Source: Malacoraja senta (taxonomy: Eukaryota). From it: DNA of 64,000 nucleotides. The position numbers were made by a program, and so were the translations under genes. A model generated the notes under the pieces. The model was not told where the DNA came from and did not search any database. It saw only the letters and a program-made list of their open reading frames with translations. Of the stretch, positions 2,103-63,628 are shown in pieces; the first letter of the stretch is position 1; each line of letters opens with the position of its first letter. The DNA is taken from contig CM075995.1 in assembly GCA_038087875.1 (NCBI GenBank), positions 6,574,001-6,638,000 on the forward strand, written 5' to 3'.

Positions 2103-5100
2103 AATCGTGTAATTTTTGAGAATGATGAATTATCATTAAATATGAATTATCATTAAATTATCATTAAATATAATTTAAAAAAATTGGATAGGTATATGGA
2201 TGGGAAAGGAATGGAGGGTTATGGTCTGAGTGCAGGTAGATGGGACTAGGTGAGAGTAAGTGTTCGGCACGGACTAGAAGGGCCGAGATGGCCTGTTTCC
2301 GTGCTGTAATTGTTGTATGGTTATATGGTTATATATTTGCCATCGTTATCTATTGTCACTTAATATCTCGCTCAGCTTTAATCATTAGGGTCCAGATACT
2401 AATGTAATTGGCAACATTAGCAGGTGCATGGTTCCTTGAAGGTGGAGTCGCAGGTAGTCAAAAAGGGTGGTCCAAAAGGATTTTGGCACATTGTCCCCAT
2501 CAGTCAGAGTATTGAGTAAAGAAGTTGGGAGGTCATGTTGCACTATGACTCTAGTCTGAAGTCAGCCGGAGGATTAATTGAACGTTGTGCCAAAACTGGT
2601 TCCTATCTACCTCAGTGAGTTGAGCATTATATCAAATATGTTAAACACAGAACACTTTAGTTGTTTGATAACAAGAAATTATCCCTGAATCTGGAGGCGT
2701 CTGTATCTCCTGCGGGGAGAAGAGGGATTGACCGGGGGTGAGACTGGTCCTTGATTAATGCTGCTGGCCTTGCTGAGGCAGCGTGAGGTGTAGACAAAGT
2801 CAATGGAAGGGAGGATGGTTTGTGTGATGGTCTGGGCTGCTGCATCCACAATTCTCTGCACTTTCCTGTGGTCTTGGATGGAGCTGTTCCGATAAAATGC
2901 TTTCTATGGTACATCTGTGGAAGTTGGGCAGAGATGTTGGGGACTTGCCAAATTTCCTACGCCTCCTGAGGAAGTAGAGGACGTTGGTGCGCTTTCTTGG
3001 CTACTCTAGATGTGGCTGGTTAGAGACAAATTACTGGTGATATTTTAGTTTAGTTTAGAGATACAACTAACGTGGAAATCGACCCCAATGGTCCACTGAG
3101 TCCATGCCGACCATCGATCACCCATACACTACTTCCATGTTATCCCACTTGTCGCATCCTACACACTAGGGGCAATTTATAGAAGCCAATTAACCTAAAT
3201 ACCACATTGTCCATGGAATGTGGGGGGAAACCAGAGCACCCGTAAGAAACCCACGCGGTCACGGGGAGAACGTACAAATTCAATATCGACAGCACCCGCG
3301 GTCAGTATAAAACCTGGGTCTCTGGTGCTGCGAGGCAGCAACTCTACCGCTGCACCACTGTACCACCTTGTCAGGCAATCCTTGCTCAGATCACACAAAT
3401 AAAGTTTATTCCTAAGTGTTAGACAATAGACAATAGGTGCAGGAGTTGGCCATTCGGCCCTTCGAGCCAGCACCGCCATTCAATGTGATCATGGCTGATC
3501 ATCCCCAATCAGTACCCCGTTCCTGCCTTCTCCCCATATCCCCTGACTCCGCTATTTTTAAGAGCCCTATCTAGCTCTCTCTTGAAAGCATCCAGAGAAC
3601 CTGCCTCCACCACCCTCTGAAGCAGAGAATTCCACAGACTCACCACTCTCTGTGAGAAAAAGTGTTTCCTTGTCTCCGTTCTAAATGGCTTACTCCTTAT
3701 TCTTAAACTGTGGCCCCTGGTTCTGGACTCCCCCAACATCGGGAACATGTTTTCTGCCACCAGCGTGTTAGAGGCACACGGCATGGAAACAGGCCCTTCT
3801 GACAAAGAGGCCCCATCTAAGTAATCCCATTTGCCAGCGTTTGGCCCATATCCCTCAAAATCCTTTCTACAAGTACCTATAAGAGTACCTATACAGGGAC
3901 AGTTTCCTCCCAGCTGTTATCAGGCAACTGAACCATTCTTACAATAGAAACTTACAAAATTCTTAAGTGGTTGGACAGGCTAGACGCAGGAAGATTGTTC
4001 CCGATGTTGGGGAAGTCCAGAACAAGGGGTCACAGTTTAAGGATAAAGGGGAAATCTTTTAGGACTGAGATGAGAAAACCATTTTTTACACAGAGAGCGG
4101 TGAATCTCTGGAATTCTCTGCCACAGAATGTAGTTGAGGCCAGTTCATTGGCTATATTTAAGAGGGAGTTAGATGTGGCCCTTGTGGCTAAAGGGATCAG
4201 GGGGTATGGAGAGAAGGCAGGTACAGGATACTGAGTTGGATGATCAGCCATGATCATATTGAATGGCGGTGCAGGCTCGAAGGGCCGAATGGCCTACTCC
4301 TGCACCTATTTTCTATGTGTCTATGTTTCTGTTTCTATCAACAACAAGGGAGTCGTCCTGACCTACCATCTACCTCATTGGAGACCCTCGGACAATCTTT
4401 GATTTGACTTTACCGGACTTTATCTTGCACTAAATGTTATTCACGTTATCCCCTTTATCATGTATCTGCACACAGTGGACGGCTCAATTGTAATCATGTA
4501 TTGTCTTTCCGCTGTACACAAAAATGCTGGAGAAACACTTGGGTTTCGGCCCGAAACGTTGCCTATTTCCTTCGCTCCATAGATGCTGCTGCACCCGCTG
4601 AGTTTCTCCAGCATTTTTGTGTACCTGGGATTTTCCAGCATCTGCAGTACCTTCTTAAACATATTGCCTTTCCGCTGACTGGTTAGCACGCAACAAAAAG
4701 CTTTTCACTGTACCTCTGTACACGTGACGAGAAACTAAACTGATCTCTAACCTGTTGGAAAAAGTAAAAAGCTGGCAGGCTTGGAAAGGACTATGCTAAA
4801 ATGGGCTTTGTGAAGTGAATGTTTCTGGACGCGGTCCACAACCTACCATTTGGGTGGTTGGATAGAGAGCAGTAGACGTGCAGGGAAATTATATTCAGGT
4901 GCGAGAATCATGGAGCTATGATACGGATAGGAAAGAAGAACAATAATTGGATGTGTCACGGTGGCACAGCGGTAGAGTTGCTGCCTTACAGCACCAGAGA
5001 CCAGGGTTTTATCCTGATTAATCCCTACGAACCCCATTCTCCTGCCTTCTCCCCATAACCTCTGACACCTGTACAATAGGTGACATTTTGGGTCGAGACC

Positions 5101-5750
5101 CTTCTTCACACGGTTCGTTCCTACGTACGGCAGAGTTTAATTTGACAGTTGAAGGGTAATGGTTCTGCAGTGCTCTCTTGCATTCTCTGAGCCATTGACA
5201 TAGAGTCATAGAGTGATACAGTGTGGAAACAGGCTCTTCGGCCCAACTTGCCCACACCGGCCAACATGCCCCATCTACACTAGTTCCACCTGCCTGTGTT
5301 TGGTCCATATCCCTCCAAACCTGCCCTATCCCTGTACTTGTCTAACTGTTTCATAAATGTTGGGATAGTCCCAGCTTCAACTACCTTCTCTGGCAGCTCG
5401 TTCCATACACCCACCACCCTTTGTGTGAAAAGTTACCCCTCAGATTCCTATTAAATCTTTTCTCCTTCACCTTGAACCTGTGTCCTCTGGTCCTCGATTC
5501 CCCTACTCTGGGCAAGAGATCCTGCGCAATTACCTGATTTATTCCTCTCATGATTTTGTACACCTCTATAAGATCACCCCTCATTCTCCTGCGCTCCAAG
5601 GAATGGAGACAGAGCCTGCTCAACCTCCTTCGATAGCTCAGGCCCTGAACTGAACACAATACTCTAAATGCGGCCTCACCAACATCTTACACAACTGCAA
5701 CATGACCTCCCAACATCTTAACGTCCTCTTTGTTTTCCTCCTCGTTACAG

Positions 5751-5869
5751 CAAGAATACTGGAGGGCGGTGGAGCAGAAGGATTCCCATGTGGCGGTGCA
5801 CTCTGGCAAAGTGGACACGAAAGCACACGGGAGCGGATTCCCAGTTGCCAAATCCGAACCTTTTTCAAG
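5751..5869 (+). CDS. JARID2: JARID2 coding exon (~exon 10), 119 nt
   Basis: ttacag|CAAGAATAC...TCAAG|gtaatg; encodes [39 protein letters not shown](R), matching JARID2 just before the JmjC domain. Confidence 0.96.
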
Positions 5870-10359: not shown

Positions 10360-10684
10360 AACGGCGGTACGGTGGCACAGCGGTAGAGTTGCTGCCTTAT
10401 AGCGCTTGCAGCGCCAGAGACCCAGGTTCGATCCCAACTACGGGCGCTGTCTGTATGGTGTTTGCACCTTCTCCACGTGACCTGCGTGGGTTTTCTCCGA
10501 GATCTTTGGTTTCCTCCCACGCTCCAAAGACGTGCAGGTTTGTAGGTTAATTGGCTTGGTGTATGTGTAAATTGTCCCTAGTGTGTGTAGGTAGGATTGT
10601 GTTAATGTGCGTGGATCGCTGGACGATGCGGACTCGGTGGGCCGAAGGGCCAGTTTCCACGCTGTGTCTCTAAACTAAACTAAA
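10360..10684 (+). mobile_element. HE1-type tRNA-derived SINE, full length
   Basis: A box TGGCACAGCGG, B box GGTTCGATCCC, conserved centre, CR1-like tail GGGCCGAAGGGCC...(TAAAC)n. Confidence 0.88.
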
Positions 10685-13092
10685 GTCTGACGAAGGGTCT
10701 CGACCCAAAACGTCACCCATTCCTTCTCTCCTGAGATGCTGCCTGTCCCGCTGAGTTACTCCACCATTTTGTGTCTATCTTCGATATAAACCAGCATCTG
10801 CAGTTCCTTCCTACACATTTTTTCTTTAAGATTTGAATTCACCTTTGAGATAAAGTCACCCCTTCCCTGCCTGTTCTGGAATTTGCAAGAAACAGGTTTT
10901 AGTTGTAAACGTGGCTGATAACTGAATTCACTACCTCAGTGTAATTGGACCTAGTTGTGACAAGTCCTCCTAAATTCAGCATTTGGTCATCAAGTGTCTC
11001 CCAAGTACTGGATTGCTAAGATAACATGTGTAGGAAGGAACTGCAGGCGCTGGTTTAAATCGAAGAGAGACACAAAAAGCTGGAGTAACTCAGCGGTACA
11101 GACAGTATCTCTGGAGAGAAGGAACAGGTGACGTTTCAGGTGCGAAGAAAGATCTGTTAAGATAATAGTTCTTTTTAATTCTTCCACCAGATTGACCTGA
11201 AGACCTGCTTCACTGACACAGAAGTGAGTTAAATCTTTTGTCCATATCCTTAAATGACCTTTAAAACTGCTTTAACCAAATGACCAGTTAAGCCAGCATG
11301 GACAGAGCTAAGTATATCTGTGTCAGACCAGCAGTGTGTTCAGGAATTAAAGGACAGCTAAAACTAAATGGAATTTTCCTTTAGTTTTTTTTGTTTTAGA
11401 GATACAGCGTTGAAACAGGCCCTTCGGCCCACCGCGTCCGCGACGACCACTAGTTCTATCCTACACACTAAGATTGGCTTCGGTAAAGATTGTAAATTGC
11501 CCCTAGTGTGTAGGACAGTGCTATTATACGGGTGTGATCACTGGTCGGCGCGGACTCGGTGGGCCGAAGGGCCTGTTTCCGCGCTGTATCTCTACACTAA
11601 ACTCCACATTAAACTAAACTAGAGACCACAGATGCCAATTAACCTACAAACCTGTACGTCTTTGGATACATAGATACATAGACAATAGGTGCAGGAGTAG
11701 GCCATTCGGCCCTTCGAGCCAGCACCGCCATTCAATGTGATCATGGCTGATCATCCCCAATTAGTACCCCGTTCCTGCCTTCTCCCCATATCCCTTGACT
11801 CCACTATCTTTAAGAGCTCTGTCTAGCTCTCTCTTGAAAGCATCCAGAGGACCAGCCTTCTGAGGCAGAGAATTCCACAAATTTACAACTCTCTGGGTGA
11901 AAAAGTTTTTCCTCATCTCAGTTCTAAATGGCCTATCCCTTATTCTTAAACTGTGGCCTCTGGTTCTGGACTCCCTCAACATCGGGAACATGTTTCCTGC
12001 ATCAAGCTTGTCCAATCCATTAATAATTTTATGTGTTTCTATAAGATATCCTCTCATCCTTCTCAATTCCAGTGAATACAAGCCCAGTCTCACCATTCTT
12101 TCATCATATGTCAGCCTAGGATCACCAGAATTAATCTGGTGAACCTATGCTGGACTCCCTCAATAGCAAGAATGTTTTTCCTCAAATTTGGAGTGTGGGA
12201 GGAAACCCTAGCGTCTGGAGAAAACCCACGCAGGTCATGGGGAGAACGTACAAACACCACCCTTGGTCAGGATTGAACCTGGAGATGTAAGGCAGCAACT
12301 CTACCGCTGTGCCACCATGACGCATCCAATTATCGCTCTTTTTGTCCTATCTGTATCATAGCTCCATGATTCTCGCACCTGAATATAATTTCCCTGCACA
12401 TCTACTGCTCTATATCCGACCACCCAAATGGTAGTTTGTGGACCGCATCCAGAAACATCACAGTTTCAAAGTAATCACAGTTACTGATTTTTAGGATTAG
12501 CTTCAGGATCAACTACCAAGTGAACATCTTTGGAGGGTGGGAAGGAAACCGGTGCACCCGGAGACAACCCACGCAGGTCACGGGGAGAACGTACAAATTC
12601 CGCACAGACAGCACCCATAGTCAGGTTGGAACCTGGGTCTCTGGCGCTGTGAGGCAGCAACTCGACCACTGCGCCACCGTAGACTTGATGCCTCGTCACT
12701 TTCCCAAAACTCCTCCCCCTCCTTCCAAATTTCAGTTCTCCGAACAGTTTTTTCTCCTGAATTGTTTCTCATTTTTGTTTGCAATCTGCTCACGTGTGAC
12801 TCACTGCAGTTGACAGCGTCTTTGTCTTAATTCAGTGCTTATTGATATGCATGTGGGTGGAAAGTGGCTTCCTGGTCAGACCTGACGCCAGAATCGTAAG
12901 GTCCGATAAGGCTCAGTGCTGCGGAGATTTGCCGATTTGATCCTTAGAGTCGCACAGGGTGGAAACAGGCCCTTCGGCCCAACCTGCCCACACTGGCCGG
13001 CCAACTTGCCCCATCTACACAAGTCCCACCTGCCTTCAGTTGGTCCATATCCCTCCAAACCTGCTCTATCTATGTACCTATCTTAATTGGTT

Positions 13093-13543
13093 TGGGATAA
13101 GGGAAACGAGAGATATACACGGTGACGTGGAGAGATAAAGAACAATGAATGAAAGATATGCAAAAAATTAACGTTGCTTACAGCCCAGTGGTATGACTAT
13201 TGATTTCTCTCACTTCAGGTAGCCCCGGCATTCCCTCTCTCTCTATCCCTCGCCCACCAAAGTCACACTAGCTTCTCAATTTCACCCAACAAACAGCTAA
13301 CAATGGCCCGTTTACTTTATCATCGTTACTTTCTTGCATATCTTTCATTCATTGTTCTTTATCTCTCCACATCATCGTCTATATCTCTCGTTTCCCTTAT
13401 CCCTAACCAGTCTGAAGAAGGGTCTCGACCCAAAACGTCACCCAGTCTTTCTCTCCGGAGATGCTGCCTGTCCCGCTGAGTTACTCCAGCTTTGTGTTTC
13501 TATCTTCTGTTTAGACCAACATCTGCAGTTCCTTCTTACACAT
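13093..13543 (+). mobile_element. Penelope-like element 3' end with inverted partial LTR
   Basis: 13178-13222 encodes LQPSGMTIDFSHFR* (GIY-YIG endonuclease C-terminus); hammerhead-like core at 13412; 5' part is an inverted copy of the UTR; TSD TATCTTAATTG. Confidence 0.85.
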
Positions 13544-14439
13544 GCCTATATCTTAATTGCTTCTTAAACGTTGTGATAGACCCAGCCTCAACTACCTCCT
13601 CTGACAACTTGTTCCATACACCCACTTCCCTTTGTGTGAAATGGAAGTGGGTGTATGGAACAAGTTGCCAGATTCCTATTAAATATTTCCCTCTTCGTGT
13701 TAAACCTATGTTCTCTGGTCCTCTATTCCCCTACTCTGGGCAAGAGACTCTGCGTCTTACCCGTTTTATTCCTCTCTTGATTTTATATACTTCTATAAGA
13801 TCAATTTTGTGCCATCCTAGCAAGTTGCTAGGCATCAAACCCAGGTATATTTACAAAATCTTTTTTTTTAATCTGAAATTTTTTTTTTAGAACAAGTGCT
13901 TTTTTAGATCCCCACTTAATTTTTTTTTTCATTGTGAATAGTTTCAGCTCCCTTCAAGACTGACGTTCAGCTTAGTTTTGTGTAGTTTACAGATACAGCA
14001 TGGACACAGGTCCTTTGGCCCACCGAGTCCACGCCGACCAACGATCCCCGCACATTGACATTATCCAACACACACAAGGGACAATGTAAAAACCCACAGG
14101 CCTTTGTGTTTTTGACGTGGGCAAAGTGTGCATTCCTGAGGTCGTGATGAACATAAAATGGATTCAGCGAGCATTTCTCATCTTGGCCCTCTGCCCTCAC
14201 TCTTAGTTGCCTTTGCTCGATGGGGAAACAAGGGTCTTTCAATGAACTTTGTCCGATGCCCACAACTTCAAAGATGTCCAGCGACATTTGGGAACCACAA
14301 CTTGAAACACTTCCAATGTTTTATGTAAACAAAGTAAACATTAATAATACATTCACGTGGTTGATCATGAGATAGTGAACATTTACACTCGCTTGTCTCA
14401 GCAATTCAGATTATGTTAATGACATGCCAACTATAAATG

Positions 14440-15700: not shown

Positions 15701-15806
15701 GTATTGTATTCCTGCTGAGGAGAAGACCAAACTCGATGAAGTGGTGCACACCCTACTCCAAGCTAACGGCACGTCAGGGCTCGACATGCTTGAAAGTAAT
15801 ATCATG
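15701..15806 (+). CDS. JARID2: JARID2 coding exon (~exon 13), 106 nt, JmjC
   Basis: ttcag|GTATTGT...ATCATG|gtaaga; (W)[35 protein letters not shown]. Confidence 0.96.
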
Positions 15807-16620
15807 GTAAGAGACGGTCTATCGCTGGTACCTGCCTCTGACTAGTTCAGAGATACAGCACGGAAATAGGCCCGTACACTAACACTATCCCACACACTAG
15901 GGACAATTTACAATTTTTACCGAGACCAATTAACTTACAAACCTTCATAAGTGATAGGATGAGAATTAGGCCATTCGGCCCATCAAGTTTACTCTGCCAT
16001 TCAATCATGGCTGATCTATCTCTCTCTCAACCCCATTCTCCTACCTTTTCCCCATAACCCTACACCCGTACTAACCAATAATCTATCTCTCTGCCTTAAA
16101 AATATCCATTTAAGCCTCCACAGCCGTTTGTGGCAATGAATTCCACAGATTCACCACCCACTGACTAAATACATTTCTCCTCATCTCCTTCCTAAAAGAA
16201 CGTCCTTTAATTCTGAGGCTGTGACCTCTAGTCCTAGACTCTCCCACTAGTGGAAACATCCTCTCCACATCCACTCTATCCAAGCCTTTCACTATTCTAA
16301 TGAAGAATATTATAATTATAATATATTATACAATAAATTATAATATACAACACACCATTGACCTCCATTGTTCTAATGTGTAGGAAGGAACTGCTTAAAA
16401 TGAAGATAGACACGAAAAGCTGGAGTAACTCAGCGGGGCAGGCAGCGGCTCATGGGAGAAGGAATGGGTGACATTTTGGGTTGAAACCCTTCTTCAGACT
16501 GAAGAAGAGTCTCGACCCGCAAAACGTCACCCAATCCTTCTCCCCCGAGATGCTGCCAGTCCCGCTGAGTTACTCCTTGTTGTGTCCTATCATCCATTGT
16601 TGTGATGTTTGCTTTGGCAG

Positions 16621-16803
16621 ATTTCTCCTGAGGTGCTATGCAAGGAAGGGATCAGGGTATGTCGCACTGTGCAGCAGAGTGGGCAGTTCATCGTGTGCGC
16701 TCCTGGGGCATTCGTCTCCAAAGTCTGCTGTGGGTACAGTGTGTCGGAAGCCGTGCACTTTGCAACCACACAGTGGCTGAAAACGGGCTTCGAAGCTGCT
16801 AAG
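16621..16803 (+). CDS. JARID2: JARID2 coding exon (~exon 14), 183 nt, JmjC
   Basis: ggcag|ATTTCT...GCTAAG|gtaaag; [61 protein letters not shown]. Confidence 0.97.
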
Positions 16804-17454
16804 GTAAAGAGTTTGCGTCCCCGTACACCCAACTCCAACCGCAAAGTGACCGTATGTGTGTGTGTGTGTGTTAGGTGCACGAGTCATACTATAGACTTTA
16901 ACAGAGATACTTCGCGGAAACTGGCCCTTCGGCCCACCGGGTCCGCGCCGACCAGCGATCACCCCGTGCACTAACAACAATCCTCCACGCACCAGGGACA
17001 ATTTACAATTTTACCGAAGCCAATTGACAACTGGCAACTCGTTCCATACACCCACCACCCTTTGTGTAAAAAAAGTTACCCCATAGTGTCCTATTGAATA
17101 TTTCACCCCTCTCCTTAAACCTATGCCCTCTGGTCCTCGATTTCCCCTACTCTGGGCAAGAGACTCTGCGTTTACCCGATCTATTCCTGCAATGATTTTT
17201 TGATCCATCACAGTCTGGTGGTGATGAGAGGCTGGTGTTAATCCTTGCTCTGGTCAAAGGAGGAGAAGGAATGGGCCAGGTAGGGTGTGGTGAGATGGCG
17301 AGAGAGGATGCTGTTGATCCTGACTACTGTGAGATGGGGGCAGGACGGGCGCTGTGCCAGTGAGACGGGTACGTGGGGGAACAGCCCCGGCCCCATAGGT
17401 GTGAGGGGAGATGGCCCTTGCCATGCCGTGGGGAGTGTTCAGGTCAGCCCTAGT

Positions 17455-18105
17455 TCACAAGTTATAGGAGTAGAATTAGGCCATTCGGCCCATTGAGTCT
17501 ACTCCGCCATTCAATCATGGCTGATCTCTGCCTCCTCGTCCCATTTTCCTGCCTTCTCCCCATAACCCTTGACACCCGTTCTAATCAAGAATCTATCTAT
17601 CTGCCTTAAAAATATCCACTGACTTGGCCTCCACAGCCCTCTGTAGCAATGAGTTCCACAGATTAACTACCCTCTGACTAAAGAGGTTACTCCTCACCTC
17701 CTTTCTAAAAGAACACCCTTCAATTCTCAGGCTGTGACCTCTGGTCCTAGACTCTCCCACCGGTGGAAACATCCTCTCCACATCCACTCAATCCAAGCCT
17801 TTCATTATTCTGTAAGTTTCAATGAGGTCCCCCCTCAACCTTCTAAACTCCAGCGAGTACAGGCCCAGTGCTGTCAAGCGCTCATCATATGTTAACCCAC
17901 TCATTCCTGGAATCATTCTTGTAAATCTCCTTGGGACCCTCTCCAGAGCCAGCACATCCTTCCTCAGATATGGGGCCCGAATTTGCTTACAGTATTCCAA
18001 ATGCGGCCTGACCAGCGCCTTATAGAGCCTCAGCGTTACATCTCTGTTTTTGTATTCCAGTCCTCAATATAAATGCTAGCATTGGATTTGCCTTCCTTAC
18101 TATTG
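17455..18105 (-). mobile_element. CR1 LINE 3' fragment
   Basis: ORF2 C-terminal motifs on minus. Confidence 0.88.
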
Positions 18106-46490: not shown

Positions 46491-48308
46491 AGTTAGGGGA
46501 GGTAGTTGTTGGTCCTGACCTCCCATCTACCTCATGTAGAAAAGTGTGAAGTCATGCATTTTGGTAGCAGGAATAAAGGCGTAGACTATTTTCTAAATGG
46601 GGAGAGGAACGGATGTCAAGGGTTACGGGGAGAAGGCAGGAAAATGGGATTAGGAGGCAGAGATCAGCCATGAGTGAATGGCGGAGTAGACGCGATGGGC
46701 CGAATGGCCTAATTCTACACCTTTAACTTGTGAACGTGATTCAGAAATTCGGAGTACTGGTGCAGGATTCCCAAAAGGTTAATTTGCAAGTTGAATTGGT
46801 AGTAAGGAAGGCAAATGCAATATTAGCATTTATTTCAAGAGCATAGAGTATAAAAACAGGGATGTAATGCTGAGGCTTTATCAGGCACTAGTCAGACAGC
46901 ATTTGGAGTAATGTGAGAAGTTAGGTATTTTTAAGGTGGAGATGGACAGATACTTGATTAATCTGTGTGTCAGGGGTTATGGGGAGAAGGGTTATGGGGT
47001 TGAGAGGGAAAGTTAGATCAGCCATGATTGAATGGTGGAGTAGACTCAATGTGTACTTCGGAGTAGCGCAATGTCTACTACCAATTCGGAATAATGGCCG
47101 ACATCTGCTCCTATGACTTATGAACATAACTCTTTTATAGGAGAGGCATAGATATGGCAAAAAGACAATCTTTCCCCCCAAAGTAAGAATTTAAAACTAG
47201 TGGGCATAGGTTTAAGTGAGAGGGGGCAGATTTAAAAAGGACCCTAGAGGCAACTTCTTTACACAGAGGGACATTGAGTGCTGGTGAAAGTGGTAGAGTG
47301 GGAGAGTCTAGGACCAGAGGGCACAGCCTCAGAATAAAAGGACGTACCTTTAGAATGGAGATGAGGAAGAATCTCTTCAGTCAGAGGATGGTGAATCTGT
47401 GGAATTCATTGCCATAGACGGCTGTGGAGGCCAAGTCAGTGTCATACACTTGTTAAAGAGGAGATTGATTGGTTGGTGATTAGTAAGGACATTTAGTTTA
47501 CTTTAGTTGATTGTCACGTGTACCGAGGTGCAGTGAAAAGTTTTTTTGTTGCGTGCTAACCAGTCAGCGGAAAGACAATACATGATTACAATCGAGCCAT
47601 TTACAGTCAAAGGTTGCGGGGAGAAGTCAGGAGAATGGAGTTGAGAGGGAAAAATAGATCAGCCATGATCGAATAGCGGAGTAGACTTGATGGGACGAAT
47701 AGTCTAATTCTGCTTTTATGTCTTATGGTACAATTATAACACTTGGGCAGGCTCATGGATAGGATAGGTTTGGAGGGATATGGACCAAGGCAAGTGGGAC
47801 TATCTCAGTTAGGCAATCTGGTCAGCATGGATGAGTTGGGCCAAAGGGCCTGTTTCCATGCTGTATAACTATGGCTTCAGGATACATTGAGGGAAATAAA
47901 AGCACTTTTGCCCTTAACTCCCATTTTGCTTTTTCTTTGAAAATATTTAAGCATGATTTCATTTTTGCAGAGTGCTGGTGCAGGACCATTTTGTGATAAA
48001 ATATAACTTATTCTCCAGATGTTTGTGGAATAAATCTGGTAAAAATAAACTGAAATCTATTCTGCAATGCTCAGATGTGTTTATCCTTGCGATGACCTGC
48101 GGGCATCTCATAAGGTTGAATGCTTTCATCTGGAAGAGCAGAGTCAAAAGTTATTTTTACATTTATGGATGAGGAAAAATAATTGCAGAATTAAAGAAAA
48201 AGAACTGGACTGGAAAGTGGAGAAATAAAAGCCGGAGAGCAGTGCTGAACTACCATCTACCTCTCTGGTGACCCTCGGAGTATCCATGATCGAACTTTAC
48301 TAGCCTTA

Positions 48309-48638
48309 TAGCCCTGTCCCACGGTACGAGTTCATTCCAAGAGCTCTCCCGAGTTTACAAAAAATCAAGCTCGTGGTAAGCACGGAGTTTGAACGTAGCG
48401 GGTACGTCGGAGCTCGGGGACGTCTCTTAGCGGCTCGTAACGCTAACGGCAGGTACTCGGGAAGACTCGCTAATGGCAGGTGAGCACGGGAAGACTCGTG
48501 AAGATTTTTCAACATGATGAAAAATGTCCACGAGAGCCCCACGTACCGGCGAGCGGCCATTACCGTAAATCTCCGAGTTCGAATCAGGGCAAACTCGGGA
48601 GAACTCTTGGAATGAACTCGTACCGTGGGACAGGGCTT
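48309..48638. mobile_element. Harbinger-type MITE, type A (second copy)
   Basis: Colinear with 435-754; flanks TTA/TCA. Confidence 0.85.
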
Positions 48639-48658
48639 TCACCTTGCACTAAACGTTA

Positions 48659-48889
48659 AGGGCCTGTCCCACTTGGCGATTTTTTTGCCGACTGCCGGCA
48701 TTATTGACTGACGTATCAGGTCACCGAAAAATTTGCAGCGTGATGACGTATAGGATGCGCGGTGTTTCCTCAAGTGTCGCAACATTTTTTCTTGTCGCCA
48801 CTGGATTTTGAAATGTTCAATATCTTTTGGCGACACTGATATGACGCCGGCAGTAGCCGAAAAAAAATCGCCAAGTGGGACAGGGCCCT
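48659..48889. mobile_element. Harbinger-type MITE, type B
   Basis: TIR AGGGCCTGTCCCACTTGGCGATTTTTTT with its inverse at the right end; TTA/TAA flanks. Confidence 0.8.
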
Positions 48890-49619
48890 TAAGTCCCTTA
48901 TCTTGTATCTATACACTCAACTAACTGGCTGTTTCCTTTAGTTTAGATGTATTAAAGTAAATTGATTTAAATATATGCCTCTGGTTAAAGCTTTAATATT
49001 AATTTAATGTTAATTCGAACATTAGAGGGGCACTGTGGCTCAGCGTTAGAGTTGCTGCCTCTCAACACCAGAGACCCGTGTTCGATCCTGACTACGGGCG
49101 CTGTCTGAAAGTGGAATCATATACAATCAGGGGAGATCGGATGATCATTGGTCAGTGCGGACTCGGTGGGCCGAAGGGCCCAATTCCTGTATCTCTAAAC
49201 TAAACTAATCACAGCTTTAGAGATGGTGCCGGACTCTCGGAGTTAGTCCAGCACTTTGTGTTGTATGTATGTGACACCTTGTGTTCCCTGACTATAAACT
49301 ATAAGTTGTCCATCCAATATTGGAACATAAAATATTCCACTGAAACTATACTTTCCTTCTCTACATATAGCGATGAATCAAATATCAGGGAGCACGATGG
49401 CACAGCGGTAGAGTTGCTGTCTTGCAACAACCAGAGACCCGGGTCCATCCCGACTGCACGAAGTTTGTACTTTCTCCCCGTGACCAGTGTGACCCGTGCT
49501 CCGGTTTCCTCCCACACTCCAAAGACGGATAGGTTTGTAGGTTTATTAGCTCTGGTAATAATTGTAAATTGTCCCTAGTGTATTTAGGGTAGTGTAGAGT
49601 ACAAGGACACGGTGGGCCA

Positions 49620-50856
49620 AATATAACCATATAACCATATAACCATAACAGCACGGAAACAGGCCATCTCGGCCCTTCACGTCCGTGCCGAACATTTAAA
49701 AAATTTTTTTTTTTTTAAATTAAAAATAAATACTTCCCCCTAGTCCCATCTACCTGCACTCAGACCATAACCCTCCATTCCTTTCCCGTCCATATACCCA
49801 TCCAATCTATTTTTAAAGGATAACATCGAACCTGCCTCCACCACTTCCACTGGAAGCTCATTCCACACAGCTACTACTCTCTGAGTAAAGAAGTTCCCCC
49901 TAATGTTCCCCCTAAACTTCTGTCCCTTAATTCTCAAGTCATGTCCCCTTGTTTGAATCTTCCCTACTCTCAATGGGAAAAGCTTATCCACGTCCACTCG
50001 GTCTAACCCGCTCATAATTTTAAAGACCTCTATCAAGTCCCCTCTTAACCTTCTGCGCTCCAAAGAATAAAGACCTAACTTGTTCAACCTTTCTCTGTAA
50101 CTTAGTTGCTGAAACCCAGGCAACATTCTAGTAAATCTCCTCTGTACTCTCTCTATTTTGTTGACATCCTTCCTATAATTAGGCAACCAAAATTGTACTC
50201 CATACTCCAGAATTGGCCTCACCAATGCCTTGTACAATTTTAACATTACATCCCAACTTCTATATTCAATGCTCTGATTTATAAAGGCCAGCACACCAAA
50301 AGCTTTCTTTACCACCCTATCTACATGAGATTCCACCTTCAGGGAACTATGCAGTTATTCCTAGATCCCTCTGTTCAACTGCATTCCTCAATTCGCTACC
50401 ATTTACCGTGTACGTCCTATTTTGATTTGTCCTGCCGAGATGTAGCACCTCACATTTGTCAGCATTAAACTCCATCTGCCATCTTTCAGCCCACTCTTCC
50501 AAATGGCCTAAATCTCTCTGTAGACTTTGAAAATCTACTTCATTATCCACAACACCACCTATCTTAGTATCTTCTGCATACTTACTAATCCAATTTTCCA
50601 CACCTTCATCCAGATCATTGATGTACATGACAAACAACAGTGGACCCAACACAGACCCCTGAGGCACCCCACTAGTCACCGGCCTCCAACCTGACAAACA
50701 GCCATCCACCATTACTCTCTGGCATCTCCCATTCAGCCACTGTTGAATCCATCTTGCTACTCCACCATTAATACCCAACAATTGAATCTTCTTAACCAAC
50801 CTTCCACGAGGAACCTTGTCAAAGGCCTTACTGAAGTCCATATAGACAACATCCAC
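49620..50856 (-). mobile_element. CR1/HER1-type LINE 3' fragment (best preserved in the window)
   Basis: ORFs 50347-50856 and 49740-50336: DFSKAFDKV...SGVPQGSVLGPLLF...KYAEDTK; (TATATGGT)n-type tail. Confidence 0.93.
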
Positions 50857-53669
50857 TGCTTTGGCCTGAAATGGCCTGTTTCCACGCTGTATCTTCAGAA
50901 ACTAAAATATAAAATCTGCTTTCAACCAGTACCTTGCAATGCAGAATGTTTCTTTGTTAGTGAATTTGACATTAACTTATGGTTTGAACAATTATTCACA
51001 CTTTAGACTTTAGAGATACAATGCGGAAACAGCCACGCCGACCGGTGATCACCCCGTACACTAGAATAATTCGTACACACTCGAGACAATTTATAATTTT
51101 ATCAAAGCCAACTAACCCACAAACCCCCATGTCTTTGGAGTGTGAGGGGAAACCGGAGCATCCTGAGAAAACCCAAGCGGTCACAGTGAGAACGTACCCG
51201 CAGTCAGGATTGAACCTGGGTCTCTGGCGCTGCAAGGCAGCAATTCTACCGCTGCGCCACTATAACACTCAACTGTGTAATTTTTACAATTTACAGTTCA
51301 GTTTAGTTTATTGTCACGTGTACCAGGGTACAGTGAAAAGCTTTTGTTGCGTGCTAACCAGTCAGCGGAAAGACAACACATGATTACAATCGAGATATGT
51401 GATACACGATACACTCCGTTAGCTGTTTACAAGCTGTGGATTAGTTTAGTTTAGAGATACAGGAAACGGGCCCTTCGGCCCACCGAGTCCGCACTGACCA
51501 ACGATAATCCGTTCTCACTGATTCTATATGATTCCACTTTCAGACAGCGCCCGTAGTCAGGATCGAACCCGGGTCTCTGGCGTTGAGAGGCAGCAACTCT
51601 AACGTTGAGCCACCATGCTGCCCTAATGTTGGAATTAACATTATATATTAAAGCTTTAACCAGAGGCATATATTTAAACCAATTTACTTTCATAAATCTA
51701 AACAGCCAAAAACCAATATTGAATAAAATGAGCTTTTCATATTAATTTAACCTGCCTGTTAGGTAGCCAATAATAGAATCTTTAACATTTTCAGCTGTAA
51801 CAATTTGAAGCCAAATTATTTTTAGAGATGCTTTAGACTTTAGACATTAGAGATACAGCGCGGAAGCAGGCCATTTGGCCCATTCGAGTCGGCACTGAAC
51901 AGTAATCAGCCTGTACACTATCCTACACACTAGGGACAATTTTATAACTTACCGAAGCCAATGAACCTACAAACCCGTACGTCTTTGGAGTGTGGGTGGA
52001 AACCGGAGCACCCGGAGAAAACCCACACGGTCACAGGGAGAAGGTACAAACTCCGTACAGACAGCACCCGCAGTCAGGATCGAACCCGGGTCTCTGGCGC
52101 CGTATGGCAGCAACTCTACCTGCCCCTGAAGCTCTGCTATTTTATGAGAATAAGAACATAAGACAGGCCCTTCGGCCACCATGCCTGTGCCGATAAGACT
52201 ATCCCTTATCTGCCTGCACATAATCTATATCCCATACTCCTTGCATATGCATGTGCCTATCCAAAAGTCTATTAAATGCCACTGTTGTGTCTGTCTCAAC
52301 TACCTCCTCCAGCAGCTCGTTCCATACACCTATCACCCCCTGTGTGAAAAAGTTACTCCTCAGGTTCTTATTAAATCTTTCCCCCTTCACCTTAAACCTA
52401 TGTCCTCTGGTTCTCGATACCCCTACGCTGGGCAAGAGACTCTGTGCGTCTACCTGATCTATTCCTCTCATGATTTTGTACACCTCTATAAGATCACCCC
52501 TCGTCCTCCTGTGCTCCAGGGAATAGTTCCAGCCTGTTCAACCTCAGCCCTATAGCTCAGGCTCTCGGAGTCCGGGCAACATCCTTGTAAAATTTCTCTG
52601 CACCCTTTCCAACGTGACTATTTCAAGGTTTGGATGTTTCCACAAGGAGCGATGAGTCACTGACTGTTTCAGTTTATGCCCCAATGCAGACGGCACAGAT
52701 GAAACCTGTTTGGAGATTTGGACAGGCTACCCACAAAGTAGACAGTGGGAAGCAGTCAAAGTTGATGTGCATTCTTCCATGTAATTCAATCCAATGGAGG
52801 TTTTCATTCAATGTGAGATCGAGAAGTATACTTAAAGCAATTTGCAAGTCTGCATCATAACTGCCTCTACATCTCGGTGGAAAATTGCACATTAAATTCA
52901 CTCTTTTGCCTCTGTTGCATGTCCTCCAGGGGACATTAATGATGTTTTGGGAATTTCCTGATCTCTTGGTGTGGGGGGGGGGGGGGGGGGTAGTCTGGAA
53001 GCGAGAGAGGGCCAGGACAAATCAGATGAAGAAGGGTTCCGACCCAAAACGTCACCTATTCCATTTCTCCAGAGAAGCTGCCTGACCCGCTGAGTTACTC
53101 CAGTATTTTGTGTCTATCCAAATATATACAATTCTTCTCCTGACTAACAAAGACATGTATAATTAATTGCCTCTGGGACAATTTACAATTCTACCCAAGC
53201 CCCAAACACACACACACACACACACACCTGGTTGCTTACGTTTTCCCTCATGGGTTTATTAAGCAAAATGACATTATCCATAGGGTTCCATTGATGGAAC
53301 ATCACAGTCAGTAACAAAGCTATTCTCAGATCATATGTCAGTCATAGAGTGATACAGTGTGTGGAAACAGGCCCTCCGGCCCAACGTGCCCACACCGGCC
53401 AACATGTCCCAGCTACACTAGACCCACCTGCCTGCGTTTGGTCCACATCCCTCCAAACCTGTCCTATCCATGTACCTGTCTAACTGACAATACCTAACGC
53501 AACATGGTTGATTCCATGGTCATTACGGTTTAAGAGTTATGAGTTTATTGTCACGTGTACCGACGTGTACAGTGAGGAGCTTTTGTTGCGTGCCAAACGG
53601 CCAGCGGAAAGATAATACATGATTACAATCGGGCCATCCGCAGTGTAGAGATGCATGACAAAGGGTCTT

Positions 53670-53972
53670 ACCTTCCACTACCTGCAACCTCCGGCAACCA
53701 CCTGCAACCTCCGGCAACCACCTTCAACTAGCATCGCAACCGGCTTCGATTAAAAAATTACCAATTTTTTAAACGGCAACCTATTTTTAGTCGCGGCCGG
53801 TTTTGAATTTTTTGAAATAATCGCCGGAACATAGAAGAAGCGGAAACCACTTTCGACCATTAGGGAGACTGACAAAAACCTCCGGGAACCTCTGGGAACC
53901 GCACGGAAACCTTGGGTGGGGCGCAAAGTCTCCAGAGGTTTCCGTTCAGGTTTCCTAAGTGGGACAGGGGCA
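53670..53972. mobile_element. Truncated Harbinger-type MITE, type D
   Basis: Ends in GTGGGACAGGGGCA followed by TAA; internal GCAACCTCCGGCAACC repeats; left TIR absent. Confidence 0.65.
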
Positions 53973-54783
53973 TAAGAAGTGTTGCTGTCAGAGTAGAGGT
54001 TTAACAGTGGAGCGATTGTAATGCGTGATTGCAGTCCCACTTCTGGGGCTAGCACACAAAGAGTGGCCTGGGTTCGTTCTCTCGTGTGTCAGACGATGTC
54101 GCTCGCTGTTGGCGTCTGTCGTTCCGTCGTGGCCTGGGTTAGGCGCCATCTTGGATTCAGCAATAGAGTCTGTTCCATACAGACTATGCATAAAAATCAA
54201 TCTTCCATTCACTGGACTATCTGGAGAAATCGCCCCACTTTAAATTGGAGAGATTGTTGTGGGTCTCGACCCGAAACGTCACCTATTCCTTCCCTCCAGA
54301 GATGTTGCCTCAGAGTCCCGCTGAGTTACTCCAGCAATTGTGACTATCCTCGGTGTAAACCAGCACCTGCCGTTCCTTCCTACACAGTAGTTTCCACTTT
54401 GTTCTAGACGCCTTCATCCTAAATTGGTCTACCTTCTGAGAATGGAATATGTCATTGCCACATGTGACAGGGCACAGTGAAATCCTTTGCTTGCATATCC
54501 AGGGTATGCAAATAGCCGCCATTTACGGCCACGTCACAAGTGCCCCCGCCGGCTCCTCCTTTGTTCTACCCCACCCTCCCCCACAGTGGTTCCCCCACAC
54601 CAGCTTGAAGTTTGTTAGCCGCCCCCTTCCCCCCCGGTCCTCCATTCCCCATTGTTCTTCCCCCTCCCATTTGGTGGTCCCACCACGCCGGGTCCTGCAT
54701 TGTTCATTGGTCTTCCCCCTCACTCATGGCGGTCCCCCCATGCCCATGTTTTGTTCCAAAGACTGATGTTACCTCAGACTTAC

Positions 54784-54810
54784 CATACTGGCTCATCACT
54801 AACTCAAATG
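54784..54810 (-). CDS. DTNBP1: Candidate 27-nt DTNBP1 microexon
   Basis: ttgcag|CATTTGAGTTAGTGATGAGCCAGTATG|gtaagt; keeps phase 1 and has no stop (AFELVMSQY); no transcript evidence available. Confidence 0.35.
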
Positions 54811-54899
54811 CTGCAATGGTGTTGTCAACAAATACAATGAAGATGACAATGCAACGTAAATATTGGTTAAAAATCTACCGATTCACATTGGCACAGTGC

Positions 54900-55640
54900 G
54901 AACTCCATCTTCAAGTTCGCCAACCGCACAACATTGTTGGACGAATCGCAGATGACGCTGAGTCAGGGAATAGAAGTGAGATCGATCGACTGACCATATG
55001 GTGCCAGCACACCAACCCGGCTCTCAGTCACTAAGACCAAGGAACTGATCATGTGGACCTTGGAAGAGGAAGGATGAGGACCCACAAAGCTGTCTGTATT
55101 GACGGGACAATGGTCTAGAGAGTTTATAGCTTCAAATTTCTGGGCGTGCATATTTCTGATCTTTCCTGGACCCTGCACACTGATGCAATTATAAAGAAAC
55201 CCCTTCAACGCCTCTACTTCCTGAGAAGATTACAGAGATTCGGTATGTCAGAGAGGATTCTCTTGAACTTCTACAGGTGTACATTAGAGAGCATATTGAC
55301 TGGTTGCATCACGGCCTGGTTCGGCAACACGAACGCCCAGGAGCGAAGAAGACTGCAAAAGGTGGTGAACCCGGCCCGGTCCATCACAGGTACTGACCTC
55401 CCACCATCGAAGGGACCTACAGGAGTTGCTGCCTCAAAAAGGCAGCCAGCATCATCAGAGACCTACACCACTCTGGCCACACACTCATTTCACCCCTGCC
55501 ATCGGGGAAGAAGGTACAGGAGCCTGAAAACTGTAAAGTCCAGGTTCAGGAGCAGCTTCTCCCCTACAGCCATCAGGTTATTAAACACGACAACCTCCAA
55601 ATAAGCTCTGAACTACATAGACTTGGGAACATTGGCATTG
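54900..55640 (+). mobile_element. Rex1/Babar-like LINE 3' fragment
   Basis: HISDLSWT...QRLYFLRRLQRFG...FYRCTLESILTGCITAWFGN. Confidence 0.85.
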
Positions 55641-56075
55641 TCTTTTTGCAGTATTACATACTTGCAGCAGCACAACAGAATATGTAAACATAGAAAACGA
55701 AATAATAAACAGAATAAGTTCTTTATGAAATATATATATATATAAATGCACACACACATATACACACATGCATACACACACACACACACACATACGATCA
55801 CATTGAATGGCGGTGCTGGCTCGAAGGGCCGAATGGCCTAGTCCTGCACCTATTGTCTATTGTCTACATATTTTGTTGTGCTGCTGCAAGTAAGAATTTA
55901 ATTGTTCTGTTTGGGACATATGACAATAAAGACTCTTGAAATATTGTTGAAGACACAGAAACATTAAAAGTTATACTACAAGGTACACCGACTTGCATTG
56001 TGTGAATATCATAGCAGAGGATATTTGAGGACAATTTGCTTTGATTTCTGATGCTAAAGTAATGGAAAGTCTTGC

Positions 56076-56231
56076 CTCGTCTCTGCGCGATCTGCAAATA
56101 CCCCGTGGACAGGTACTGCTCCAGGTCCTGCTGAAAGGCCTCTTCAAAAAACTTCTGCCGCTCTTTCAATTTCTGTTGCTGCGAGTTCTCCATGTCACGA
56201 ACCTTATGGGCATGTACTTCATCCAACTTAA
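56076..56231 (-). CDS. DTNBP1: DTNBP1 (dysbindin) coding exon (~exon 8), 156 nt
   Basis: Minus strand tttcag|TTAAGTTG...AGACGAG|gcaaga; [51 protein letters not shown](E); GC donor. Confidence 0.93.
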
Positions 56232-57093
56232 CTGAAACAGGAGGAAAAGATCATTGACATGAGCCATGAGCAAAGAAATAGGAACTACAAATTGCCAGGA
56301 CTTCATACAATGCAAACAATTCATAAAAGTTTCAATCGTAACCTGGTTGAGTTGAGTTTATTATTGTCACGTGTACTGAGGTGCAGGGCAAAGCTTTTTG
56401 TTGCGTGCCCTCCGGTCAGCGAAAAGACTAGACATGTTTACCACCCACAGATACAGGATAAAGGGCATAATGTTTAGGGCAGGAACCTGACTAACACTCG
56501 GGCTAAAGAATGGATGAAATGTTATACTCTGAAATGTACGAATATATCTCGAACGAAGTTTTTTATCTTAATAAATGTTTCCATTCTTCTTTAACTATCT
56601 TTTTCTTTTCTGTTTTCTTTTTTTTTGTTTTGTTTTTTTTCTTTCTCTTTTCTTTCTTTACTTCATCTATCTTTTTAGTTCTATCTAGTTTAAAAAAAAA
56701 CAAAAAAAGGCAAAAGGTATTGGAGACAATGTAATAATAATTGACAATATTATCAATTTAAAAATGAAAGACTGGTAATGATGATAATATGTTGTGTACT
56801 TATCTCCAATAAAAAATATTTTCAAAAAAATAATAATGTTTAGTGCAAGATAAAGTCCAATAAAGTCCGATTAAAGATAGGTGTAGAAAGGAACTGCAGA
56901 TGCTGGTTTACACAGAAGATAGACACAAAATGCTGGAGCAACTCAGTGGGTCAGGCGGCAAGTCTGGAGAAAAGGAATAAGAGGTGTTTCGGGACGAGAC
57001 CCTTCCCTGAACCAGAAACACCTCCGATTAAAGATCGTTTGAGGGTTTCCAATGAGGTAGATAGTAGTTCAAGACCGCTCTCTAGTTGTGATG

Positions 57094-57801
57094 AGGGCCT
57101 GTCCCACTTGCGTGTCCTTAGCACGCAAATTACGCGACCTCGTGGTCGCGTTGAGCCGCGACAGTCCCGCGAAGGTCACACGCGACTTCATTCGACCGCG
57201 CAGCCAATTGGAACGCGCGACTTCATTCGACCGCACAGCCAATTGGAGCGCGTGACGTCATTTGAAGATGGACACAAAATGCTGGAGTAACTCAGCGGGA
57301 CAGGCAGCATCTCTGGAGAGAAGGAATGGGTGATGTTTCGTGTCGAAGCTCTTCTTCAGTCTGAAAAGAAGGGTCTTGACCCGAAACGTCACCCGTTGCT
57401 TCTCTCCAAAGATGCTGCCGGTCCCGCTGAGTTACTCCAGCATTTTGTGTCTATCTTCAATTTTCTTGGCCCCGCTCTGGGAGTAGAAGTGGGGGCGGAT
57501 CCAGACCGCAACGGCCGTGAGCCCCAGGCCGAGTTCGGCGATCGTTTGCCTGCTTCTGCTGCTGTTGGAGGTGAGACGTTGCGTCGCGCCAGGGTCTTGG
57601 GCCTGTCCCACTTTGGCCGTCTTCTGCGACAGGCCGTTGGCGTGCGAAGATTTTGTTCGCTACAAAAATTTCGGAGCCCCGCACGATGTCGCGCACAACT
57701 ACATACCCCTCCGCGTTTCTCAGTGGGACCGGCGCCGCGCGGCCACACGATGCCCGTGCGCGTAATTTGCGTGCCAAGAACACGTAAGTGGGACAGGCCC
57801 T
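57094..57801. mobile_element. Harbinger-type MITE, type C, containing a Penelope-derived palindrome
   Basis: ~43 bp TIR AGGGCCTGTCCCACTTRCGTGTYCTTRGCACGCAAATTACGCG; ATG/ATA flanks; interrupts a Rex1-like tail. Confidence 0.8.
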
Positions 57802-61482: not shown

Positions 61483-61790
61483 GTTTAGTTTGGAGGCACA
61501 GCTCGGAAACAGGCCCTTCGGCCCACCGAGTCTGCACAGACTAGCGATCCCCGCACATTAACATTACCCTACGCACACTAGGGACAATCTTACATTTATA
61601 CCAAGTCAAATAACCTACAAACCTGTACGTCTGAGGAGTGTGGGAGTGAACCGAAGATCTCAGAGAAAACCTCACGCAGGTCACGGGGGGAACGCACAAA
61701 CTCCGTACAGACAGCACCCGTGGTCAGGATCGAACCCGGGTCCCTGGCGCTGGGAGGCAGCAACTCTACCGCTGCGCCACAGTGCCGCCC
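61483..61790 (-). mobile_element. HE1-type SINE
   Basis: Full-length copy on minus; further copies near 1240, 3050, 7490, 32900, 35880, 41345, 51000 and 51840. Confidence 0.88.
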
Positions 61791-63089
61791 AGTGTTGTGA
61801 AGGAGACATGAACTTAAAGGATATAATTGTTCTACATAGATACATAGAAAATAGGTGCAGGAGTAGGCCATTCGGCCCTTCGAGCCGGCCCTTCGAGTTC
61901 TGCATTTAAAGGTACATTATTGATGTGTACGAAGGAACTGCCAATGCTGGTTTACACCGAAGATACACAAAATGCTGGAGTAACTCAGCGGGACAGGCAG
62001 AGAAAAGGAATAGATGAGGCTTCGGGTCCAGAGCCTTCTTCACGGGAGGGGAGGGGAACAGATTCCCTCGCCCCTGACTCTCAGTCTGAAGAAGAGTCTC
62101 GACATGAAACGTCACCTGTTCCTCTTCTCCAGAGATGCTGCCTGACCCGCTGAGTTGCTCCAGCACTTTGTATCCATCTTACTGATGTGTATGTTGCATG
62201 TGCAATTAAACAAAGTTGCGAACTGGAAAATCGATTAATAAATTAAAAATCTCAAGGAATTGCAAACACTAGTTTACAATAAAAAAGACATAAAGTGCTG
62301 GAGTAACTCAGTGCGTCAGGCAGCATTCCTGGAAATCATGAATAGAAACATAGAAACATAGAAAATAGGTGCAGAAGGAGGCCATTCGGCCCTTCGAGCC
62401 AGCACCGCCATTTATTGCGATCATGGCTGATCGTCCCCAATCAATAACCCGTGCCTGCCTTCTCCCCATATCCCTTGATTCCACTAGCCCCTAGACCTCT
62501 ATCTAACTCTCTCTTAAATCCATCCAGTGATTTGGCCTCCACTGCCCTCTGTGGCAGGGAATTCCACAAATTCACAACTCTCTGGGTGAAAACGCTTTTT
62601 CTCACCTCAGTCTTAAATGGCCTCCCCTTTATTCCAAGACTGTGGCCCCTGGTTCTGGACTCGCCCAACATTGGGAAAATTTTTCCTGCATCTAGCTTGT
62701 CCAGTCCTTTGGTGACGTTTCACATCGGAACTCTTAGAGTCATGGAGCCAAACATCGTGGAAATGGGCCCTTTGGCCCAACTTGCCCACACCGACCAACA
62801 TGCCTCATCTACACGAGTCCCACCTGCCTGCATTTGGCCCACATACCTCTAAAGCCCATATCCATGTACCTGTTTCAATGTTTCTTAAACATTGCAATGG
62901 TACCTGCCTCAACTACCTCCACTGGCAGCTTGTTCCATACACCCACTATCCTTAGTGTAATAAAAGATCGCAATCTGAAACTTAGTTTAGTTTATTGTCA
63001 CGTGTACCGAGTTACGGTGAAGAGCCTGTAGCGAGCTACAGTGAAAAGGTACAGTGAAGAAGGATCCTGACCCGCAACATCACCTATCC

Positions 63090-63628
63090 ATGAATGAATG
63101 AATAAGTTTATTGGCCAAGTATGTTCACATACAAGGAACTTGCCTTGGTGCTCCACTCGCATGTAACAACACGTATATACAGTAAACAATTAAGAATAAA
63201 ACATAAAACATGAAAACATTAAGAATAAAACATTATAGTTTGTGAATGAAATAAAATACCAGAGCAAAAGGAGGCTACAGACTTTTGGTTATTGAGTAGA
63301 GCTACTGCTCGTGGAAGAAAGCTGTTTTTATGTCTGGCTGTGGCGGCTTTGACAGTCCGGAGTTGCCTTCCAGAGGAAAATGATTCAAAGAGTTTGTGGC
63401 CAGGGTGAGAGAGGTCAGAGATGATCTTATCCGCTTGCTTCCTGGCCCTTGCAGTGTACAGTTCGTCAATGGGGGGGGGGGGGGGGGGAGGTTGCAGCCA
63501 ACAACCTTCTCAGCTGATCGGACGATTCGCTGGAGCCTCCGGATGTCATGCTTGGTGGCTGAGCCAAACCAGACCATGATGGAGAAGATGAGGACAGACT
63601 CTACGATGGCCGTATAGAATTGGACCAT
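63090..63628 (-). mobile_element. Rex1/Babar-like LINE 3' fragment
   Basis: QFYTAIVESVLIFSIMVWFGSATKHDIRRLQRIVRSAEKVVG; (ATTC)n tail. Confidence 0.85.

Follow-up and report, generated by a model that had tools for sequence, protein, structure and literature searches.

The closest described relatives of the repeats treated here are the minimal hammerhead ribozymes (min-HHRs) found in both pseudo-long terminal repeats (pLTRs) of metazoan Penelope-like elements (PLEs) (PMC4209133). Their consensus, CUGANGAH-G..C-GAAA-palindrome-UH, lists a conserved base between positions 9 and 10.1 and has no helix III loop; most copies are solo or form opposite-strand pairs from truncated elements, there are thousands per genome, and dimers cleave weakly (PMC4209133). 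Among PLEs, the Neptune clade combines a reverse transcriptase (RT), a CX2-5CxxC linker, a C-terminal GIY-YIG endonuclease with CCHH-type residues and pLTRs, and its copies show partial tandems, an inverted 5'-truncated arm and an optional 30-40-bp tail; such a tail, inverted arms and duplications belong to the published picture of the PLE class (PMC8557442). For PAc, the Poseidon element of Anolis carolinensis, in vitro work describes the tail, two RT starts, nicking of both strands and a hammerhead that cleaves only with the element protein and is dispensable, hammerhead mutants being without effect on insertion (PMC11167929). We describe here a related case in a 64,000-nucleotide stretch of the Malacoraja senta genome (GenBank assembly GCA_038087875.1, contig CM075995.1, positions 6,574,001 to 6,638,000 of the forward strand; the whole stretch is called the window). 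The short repeats scattered through it are, with high confidence, 3' end-pieces of a Neptune-type PLE, each made of the pLTR hammerhead motif plus 60-100 nt, likely primed by RT at two internal sites on uncut RNA and stopped early, with a hammerhead predicted to be inactive.

In the numbering used below the C of CUGA is +1 and the predicted cut follows +28. A first-pass annotation of the window had reported a dispersed motif of about 20 copies, and a regular expression with up to six mismatches recovers 20 matches (13 on the + strand, 7 on the - strand); all the coordinates that it cited carry the motif, the copy at 57361 with a 2-nt insertion inside the core. Exact matches number only two (22361 + and 24456 -). 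Searched with an nhmmer profile built from nine natural copies, the window yields 41 hits (24 +, 17 -), of which those at 9385 and 9940 look like one split copy, and the 264 kb around it yield 169; the reversed sequence, serving as control, gives none. An exact 28-mer occurs 18,728 times in the 1.94-Gb genome (backwards control 0), against about 4,000-9,000 motifs in coelacanth and Xenopus (PMC4209133), and the high copy number in both orientations is thus borne out. An Rfam scan returned no hammerhead family at E up to 1, and a sequence search of the PDB returned no match.

Most copies are decayed, as the annotation had proposed for CpG sites. CpG columns of the motif are 17.5-21% diverged and non-CpG core columns 2-8%, and G12 has become A in 8 of the 35 window copies that span it. 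The loop is variable, again as annotated: among 27 scored window copies it reads CTCG in 14, TTCG in three, TCCG and CACG in one each and otherwise in eight. The 5' end of the core is reached by 21 of 40 window copies, all core letters are kept in four, and the full motif (core, 4-bp stem II and palindrome) is kept in two; for the 168 copies of the unselected 264 kb the corresponding counts are 88, 26 and 14. Both intact window copies lie within fold-backs, whose predicted pairing takes up the whole core or half of it. Core divergence is below flank divergence (0.042 vs 0.074, p=0.008), a comparison that is not base-matched and suffers from alignment edges, and selection after insertion was not read from it.

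The motif follows the min-HHR consensus in its core CUGANGA, GAAA and UH and in the extra base before G10.1, and all core letters are kept in 48 of 71 copies with native upstream sequence. The extra A after A9 that the first-pass annotation had singled out is present, but it is no distinctive feature, since a base at this place already belongs to the published consensus (PMC4209133). Helix II has 4 bp and is closed by G10.1-C11.1, and one A/G change within it keeps the pair. The palindrome 15.2-16.2 is CG in all subfamilies, with CpG decay in old copies. Stem I, which the annotation did not mention, has 2 bp (G-C plus U-A or U-G) in 40 of the 48 native-context copies with an intact core, whereas helix I of published min-HHRs has 2-6 bp (PMC4209133). 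Four subfamilies can be told apart, differing at 19 of 25 columns between -6 and -30; from +1 to +31 they differ only at loop base 13, at 11.4 (A/G, paired with U), at H17 (C/U) and at 1.1 (A/G, paired with U), and all four changes are compatible with the fold.

The annotation had also derived the hammerhead-type motif from a PLE with RT and GIY-YIG domains, and the motif does lie in the pLTR of such an element. At locus L006 an exact match stands downstream of a decayed RT and GIY-YIG frame, whose RT piece has 15,834 first-look candidates across the genome. Among the best 30 RT loci, 23 include the endonuclease, and 20 of these have a same-strand motif less than 600 nt downstream, mostly 283-340 nt from the probe. 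At three loci (L388-L390) the element is whole and bears the motif at either end, the two motifs being 3,786, 3,790 and 4,361 nt apart. From the endonuclease end the element runs through stop, pyrimidine-rich pLTR, TCAGT and motif to about 100 nt that end in the tail, followed by a likely start codon and the open reading frame (ORF). The likely start codon lies about 165 nt downstream of the motif, which places motif and tail in a 5' untranslated region (UTR); the ORF of PAc, in contrast, starts inside stem II (PMC11167929). That the longest copies join the end of the GIY-YIG ORF, another claim of the annotation, holds at other loci, but in the window it is clear only for the copy at 13412, with 15 codons.

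A young copy at L041 retains 568 open codons of the RT/GIY-YIG frame with the CX4CxxC linker CNRKRCNTC. The parent is likely a Neptune-type PLE with endonuclease (EN+), because this linker is a mark of Neptune and Nematis elements (PMC8557442). The named proteins nearest to it come from sharks and rays, at 63-70% identity over 68-79% of the query, which points to a cartilaginous fish as the likely host. It differs from the described Neptune elements in a repetitive, low-complexity insert in the N-terminal part of the ORF, seen as a variable run of short imperfect repeats, RRLTG-like in one frame (L049:4300-4900 on the - strand, L015:1-350, L034). The L041 copy (2122-7559) is itself a truncated young PLE inserted in frame in an L1-like ORF2 and flanked by a 9-bp duplication read by eye; the resulting 1,318-codon frame is chimeric, and a giant PLE of 1,318 aa was accordingly rejected. 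PLE copies also occur inside amplified composite units of 5.4-6 kb, 93-98% identical, on several contigs (L042-L047, L055-L058), as a satellite-like or segmental array. PLE tandems, suggested by RT hits 5.4-6 kb apart on small contigs, were rejected, these being composite units with other repeats.

How did the end-pieces arise? Their ends were studied in 864 kb, made up of the 264 kb unselected and 60 10-kb regions, each with an exact match at its centre; this sample holds 553 copies, 231 of them in head-to-head pairs. Insert 3' ends fall into two classes, one at about +92 to +103 and the other at about +126 to +131. The profile itself stops near +132, but contig depth in four public runs drops at least 15-fold just past the tail. 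PAc likewise has two 3' ends about 35 nt apart, which match two internal RT starts (PMC11167929). Of 83 classed pairs, 60 join a long to a short arm, where 40.8 are expected (p=1.5e-5; 30 pairs with an unclassed arm left out). A target duplication of 10-19 bp is present at 23 of 64 short solos compared with 5 of 313 shuffled ones, and the duplication-resolved junctions comprise eight with microhomology, 12 with extra bases and three blunt.

The 5' ends point to the template. After removal of 37 rows of a 66-nt tandem derivative, 516 5' ends were counted, with 158 at -6 to +4, 133 at +5 to +26, 33 at -28 to -7 and 17 at +27 to +31. A peak at +21, considered as RT stalling at stem II, was rejected because it consists of the tandem derivative. 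Few of the 516 5' ends (17) are at the cut site, against 158 that crowd just before the core; cut RNA is therefore not the main template and uncut element RNA likely is. In PAc, which was examined in vitro, no insert ends at the hammerhead cut either, and both strands are used (PMC11167929). The GIY-YIG endonuclease would nick both target strands, and RT would start at two internal sites, by likeness to the in vitro result for the anole element. Two cDNAs, or a cDNA and the target, would then join through 1-4 nt of microhomology, and the copies would decay after insertion, fastest at CpG.

Several points weigh against this account. The 60 regions centred on exact matches enrich young copies. 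The Pfam RT and GIY-YIG scores of L041 stay below the gathering cut-offs (the L006 GIY-YIG domain is above), and the clade is assigned by the linker motif, not by a tree. Fold-back by self-priming on an antisense template is a published reading (PMC3846280), and it explains the palindromic junctions as well as two-strand priming does. With 2 bp, stem I stands at the lower limit of published lengths and is weaker than most, and folding of 14 young copies gives a stem II probability of 0-0.21 and a stem I probability of at most 0.001, the core being paired with bases that follow the cut site; even in master elements the motif may thus be vestigial.

It is possible, if doubtful, that the motif is a vestige that no longer cleaves under any condition and is conserved as a promoter, splice or RT-binding sequence. 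The short stem I, the favoured competing hairpin and a dimer paired through stems II and III that is predicted to lie 8.4 kcal/mol above the free dimer all agree with this, as does the unaffected insertion by hammerhead mutants of the anole element (PMC11167929). On the other side, all the subfamily changes are fold-compatible, a 2-bp helix I is present in published PLE hammerheads (PMC4209133), and fixed differences avoid the core (0 of 8 core columns against 27 of 93 others, p=0.075). Under the end-piece reading, self-cleavage of the hammerhead in these pieces is predicted to be weak or inactive; in master elements the min-HHR would depend on a second copy for stem III and probably on the element protein as well, given the 2-bp stem I and the favoured competing hairpin. 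A 5-bp stem I gained by the copy at 24456 was also considered and rejected, since folding shows its core buried.

Metagenome contigs (L169-L284), probably animal host DNA, contain PLEs with a stem I of 3-6 bp. These related PLEs have the same core and stem II together with a covarying stem I, which has at least 3 bp in 92 of 118 matches. Counted by distinct flank pairs, stem I reaches this length in 18 of 37, against a shuffled mean of 8.3, with a search pattern taken from the present PLE family and relatedness uncontrolled. A PLE frame lies upstream in 21 of the 63 matches with enough flank.

Three readings of the 5' pile-up are conceivable: the RNA may begin at the A of TCAGT, a splice acceptor may lie there, or the ends may result from RT stalling, or from annealing, at the TCAG-T-CTGA palindrome. 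The first would make the inserts full-length copies of a short 5' RNA piece: with transcription initiating at that A, which lies 3 nt before the core in the invariant TCAGT, RT primed at internal 5' UTR sites would run to the RNA end after 95-135 nt. We hold this tentatively, as a refinement of the end-piece reading that would account for the 2-bp stem I. Solo 5' ends reach about 14 per base at -4 to -1 and at most 1 upstream of -10, TCAGT is invariant across subfamilies whose upstream pLTRs differ, and all three blunt duplication-resolved junctions begin at -3. Contigs of four runs show loose ends before -3 and -2 that have heterogeneous flanks and rank with the best supported, and 3,602 and 4,479 genome matches leave the native sequence at -3 and -2, inversions and point changes included. 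TCAGT also resembles the initiator consensus. An initiator-like TCACT has been described in a rotifer pLTR (PMC3846280). Against an RNA start, an extra G derived from a cap is not supported (G stands before one of the 16 solo inserts that start with AGT and before six of the 16 that start with GT), only three junctions are blunt, the 133 ends at +5 to +26 are scattered, and a comparable pile-up would be expected if RT stalled at the C-rich tract or if annealing took place at the palindrome. Public sequencing contigs cannot show starts, strand or expression.

Alternatively, the pyrimidine-rich pLTR may be a spliceosomal intron, with its donor at the ORF stop (AG|GTAG or AA|GTAA) and its acceptor, CAG|T, one base before the core, the pile-up then reflecting the acceptor; we think this rather improbable. 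GT follows the last codon in most copies examined, CTGAC/CTAAC, pyrimidines and CAG precede the core, the position is that of the Drosophila virilis Penelope intron (PMC2377424), and one contig joint (933 to 1044, letters between unknown; runs X1 and X20) is compatible with a loss of 105 nt. The genome, however, has no match to the spliced junction, none of 16 one-mismatch matches joins the endonuclease end to the motif, and the resolved blunt junctions retain the acceptor AG. Absence of spliced copies is not decisive, PLEs being known to keep introns in genomic copies.

Are the short repeats a family of their own? The annotation had taken them for a separate, high-copy, largely non-coding ribozyme retroelement acting in JARID2 and DTNBP1 pre-mRNAs. 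Such a non-autonomous element, a retrozyme or SINE-like unit that excises itself from transcripts and affects these pre-mRNAs, is in our estimation very improbable. In its favour, short copies far outnumber ORF-bearing ones, and a 2026 preprint derives animal retrozymes from PLE pLTRs (bioRxiv 10.64898/2026.07.22.740005); animal non-LTR retrozymes, treated there and, judged by its listing, in PMC7229834, share with the present repeats a type I hammerhead, a proposed pLTR origin and dispersed monomers. They consist of two or more consecutive tandem units with a complete hammerhead in each (bioRxiv 10.64898/2026.07.22.740005), whereas the window has no tandem units with complete hammerheads. Insert ends do not lie at the cut site, junctions are heterogeneous, and the two intact window copies of 40 are both masked. 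The copies are truncated PLE debris, the 5'-truncated and fold-back ends of an autonomous element, and the idea of a separate family is not supported.

A tandem derivative of the 3' part also speaks for such an element. It consists of 2-7 units of 66 nt (+21 to +86 of the motif region), each beginning GAAACGUC, with 14,876 exact junctions genome-wide, dense at about C1:2.7-3.4 Mb and absent from the window (L166:7119-7450, L376-L387). The units have only the GAAACGUC half and lack the CUGA half, and the first core is intact in only 2 of 23 arrays. Completion of stem III in cis by these arrays was rejected on this count and on a fold that in one array lies 8.4 kcal/mol above the best one.

An effect on the host transcripts finds no support either. 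That JARID2 and DTNBP1 are the host genes agrees with JmjC and Dysbindin domains in the window and with JmjN and ARID upstream. Within the two genes 32 of 61 copies are in sense orientation (p=0.80), as are 5 of 11 copies with intact core letters, both with low power; the sense-strand depletion of intact cores that the annotation proposed to look for is thus not seen at this power, and almost all cores are broken or masked.

At 22 loci elsewhere in the genome (L361-L375), none of them within the window, an inverted arm is joined in such a way that it is exactly complementary to the bases after the cut site and would form a long stem I around an intact core, with up to 67 contiguous pairs. The 15 of these that were folded have a stem II probability of 0.96 and a stem I probability of 0.61-0.97, all with GUC. 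They still lack a monomeric stem III and are candidate hammerheads on the strength of the predicted fold. One combined scheme, unlikely in our judgement, would have RNA beginning 3 nt before the hammerhead, tens of thousands of 95-135-nt inserts as run-off cDNAs from the 5' UTR and the ribozyme as a protein-gated switch that would cut off the capped first 30 nt; independently of this, fold-backs at these loci would build better hammerheads than the parent's, which could cut host transcripts crossing them.

Within the window, the longest copy (13088..13545, +) is flanked by an 11-bp duplication and comprises an inverted pLTR arm (13088-13176), the last 15 GIY-YIG codons with the stop (13178-13222), a pyrimidine-rich pLTR of subfamily B, the min-HHR motif at 13412 (G12>A) and a 3' region with tail. 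A subfamily C copy (46111..46480, -) has about 237 nt of pLTR, the motif at 46241 (U16.1>G) and a long tail. Of the two exact motifs, that at 22361-22388 belongs to the + arm of a head-to-head pair (22254..22454, with a flanking duplication of about 9 bp) whose inverted arm is predicted to pair with the GAAACGUC half of the + arm motif; the other, from 24456, is in the - arm of a pair at 24357..24571 and is predicted to be wholly buried in a single long hairpin, with a stem II probability of 0. The solo short insert at 10684..10817 (+) begins at the AGT directly before the core and carries a long tail and G12>A, and two further solo inserts (23664-23788 and 24091-24179, +) each have CpG hits in the motif.

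Other head-to-head pairs lie at 19258..19468 (a long-tail and a short arm, the motif at 19367 being damaged at the cut triplet), at 36364..36547 (both arms without the CUGA half) and at 61924..62345 (62042 - and 62086 +, plus a truncated - copy at 62253-62345). The pair at 57260..57463, with damaged cores, is joined at the palindrome, as is that at 16377..16596, where both cores are decayed and which ends about 25 nt before a JARID2 splice acceptor; a pair with a pLTR remnant (43196..43481) lies about 80 nt before a DTNBP1 splice acceptor. Long hairpins of such fold-back pairs near splice acceptors (16377-16620 and 43113-43481) could affect JARID2 and DTNBP1 splicing. Two short direct copies (14523-14607 and 14692-14784, +) sit within a TA/CA microsatellite. 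The remaining truncated copies are at 4529-4661, 9385-9441 with 9940-9985, 38187-38263, 53027-53118, 54261-54386 and 63627-63681 on the + strand, and at 5075-5108, 8089-8199, 11027-11141, 20841-20939, 27749-27866, 56881-57005 and 59818-59921 on the - strand, with three weak fragments at 39782, 49215 and 60926. A PLE fragment without motif (33200..33477, -) retains the last 55 endonuclease codons (33313-33477) and the start of the pLTR, and another repeat cuts it off before the hammerhead.

The host exons are the 3' exons of JARID2 (15702..33735, +; JmjC exon at about 16620, C5HC2 exons at about 28700 and 31385, last exon at about 33540) and two exons of DTNBP1, dysbindin (42969..56232, -). The window also holds numerous 3' fragments of what is presumably a CR1-like LINE ORF2 (e.g., 1310-2017, 26340-26852, 49740-50901) and what we take to be a tRNA-like SINE family (e.g., 1444-1534, 7691-7781). 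Fragments of a Tc1/mariner-type transposase (HTH, DDE_3) occur in JARID2 introns upstream of the window (L096:3932-4168, L098:6571-6891).

Minimal hammerheads of PLEs have been published, this kind of motif in 2014, and so has the debris of truncated and inverted copies. A literature search returned no paper on PLE hammerhead ribozymes in skates or cartilaginous fish, its sole shark match being a review that uses the shark for shape; a search for PLE twin priming with inverted arms and tail returned only a review that is unrelated, judged by its listing. In the supplement rows available for PMC4209133, shark, skate, Callorhinchus and Leucoraja have no match. The 2026 preprint has one chondrichthyan among its genomes with PLE-derived retrozymes (bioRxiv 10.64898/2026.07.22.740005), and its supplements may already name the PLE family seen here.

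The value of the present copies is that of a large natural data set. In vitro work had claimed uncut RNA and two internal start sites for PLE insertion; the junction statistics lend this claim support from a vertebrate genome, and the 5' pile-up gives a precise prediction of the position at which the RNA starts. The 22 loci with a long stem I are natural substrates for the question of what role these ribozymes play and whether they can cut host transcripts.

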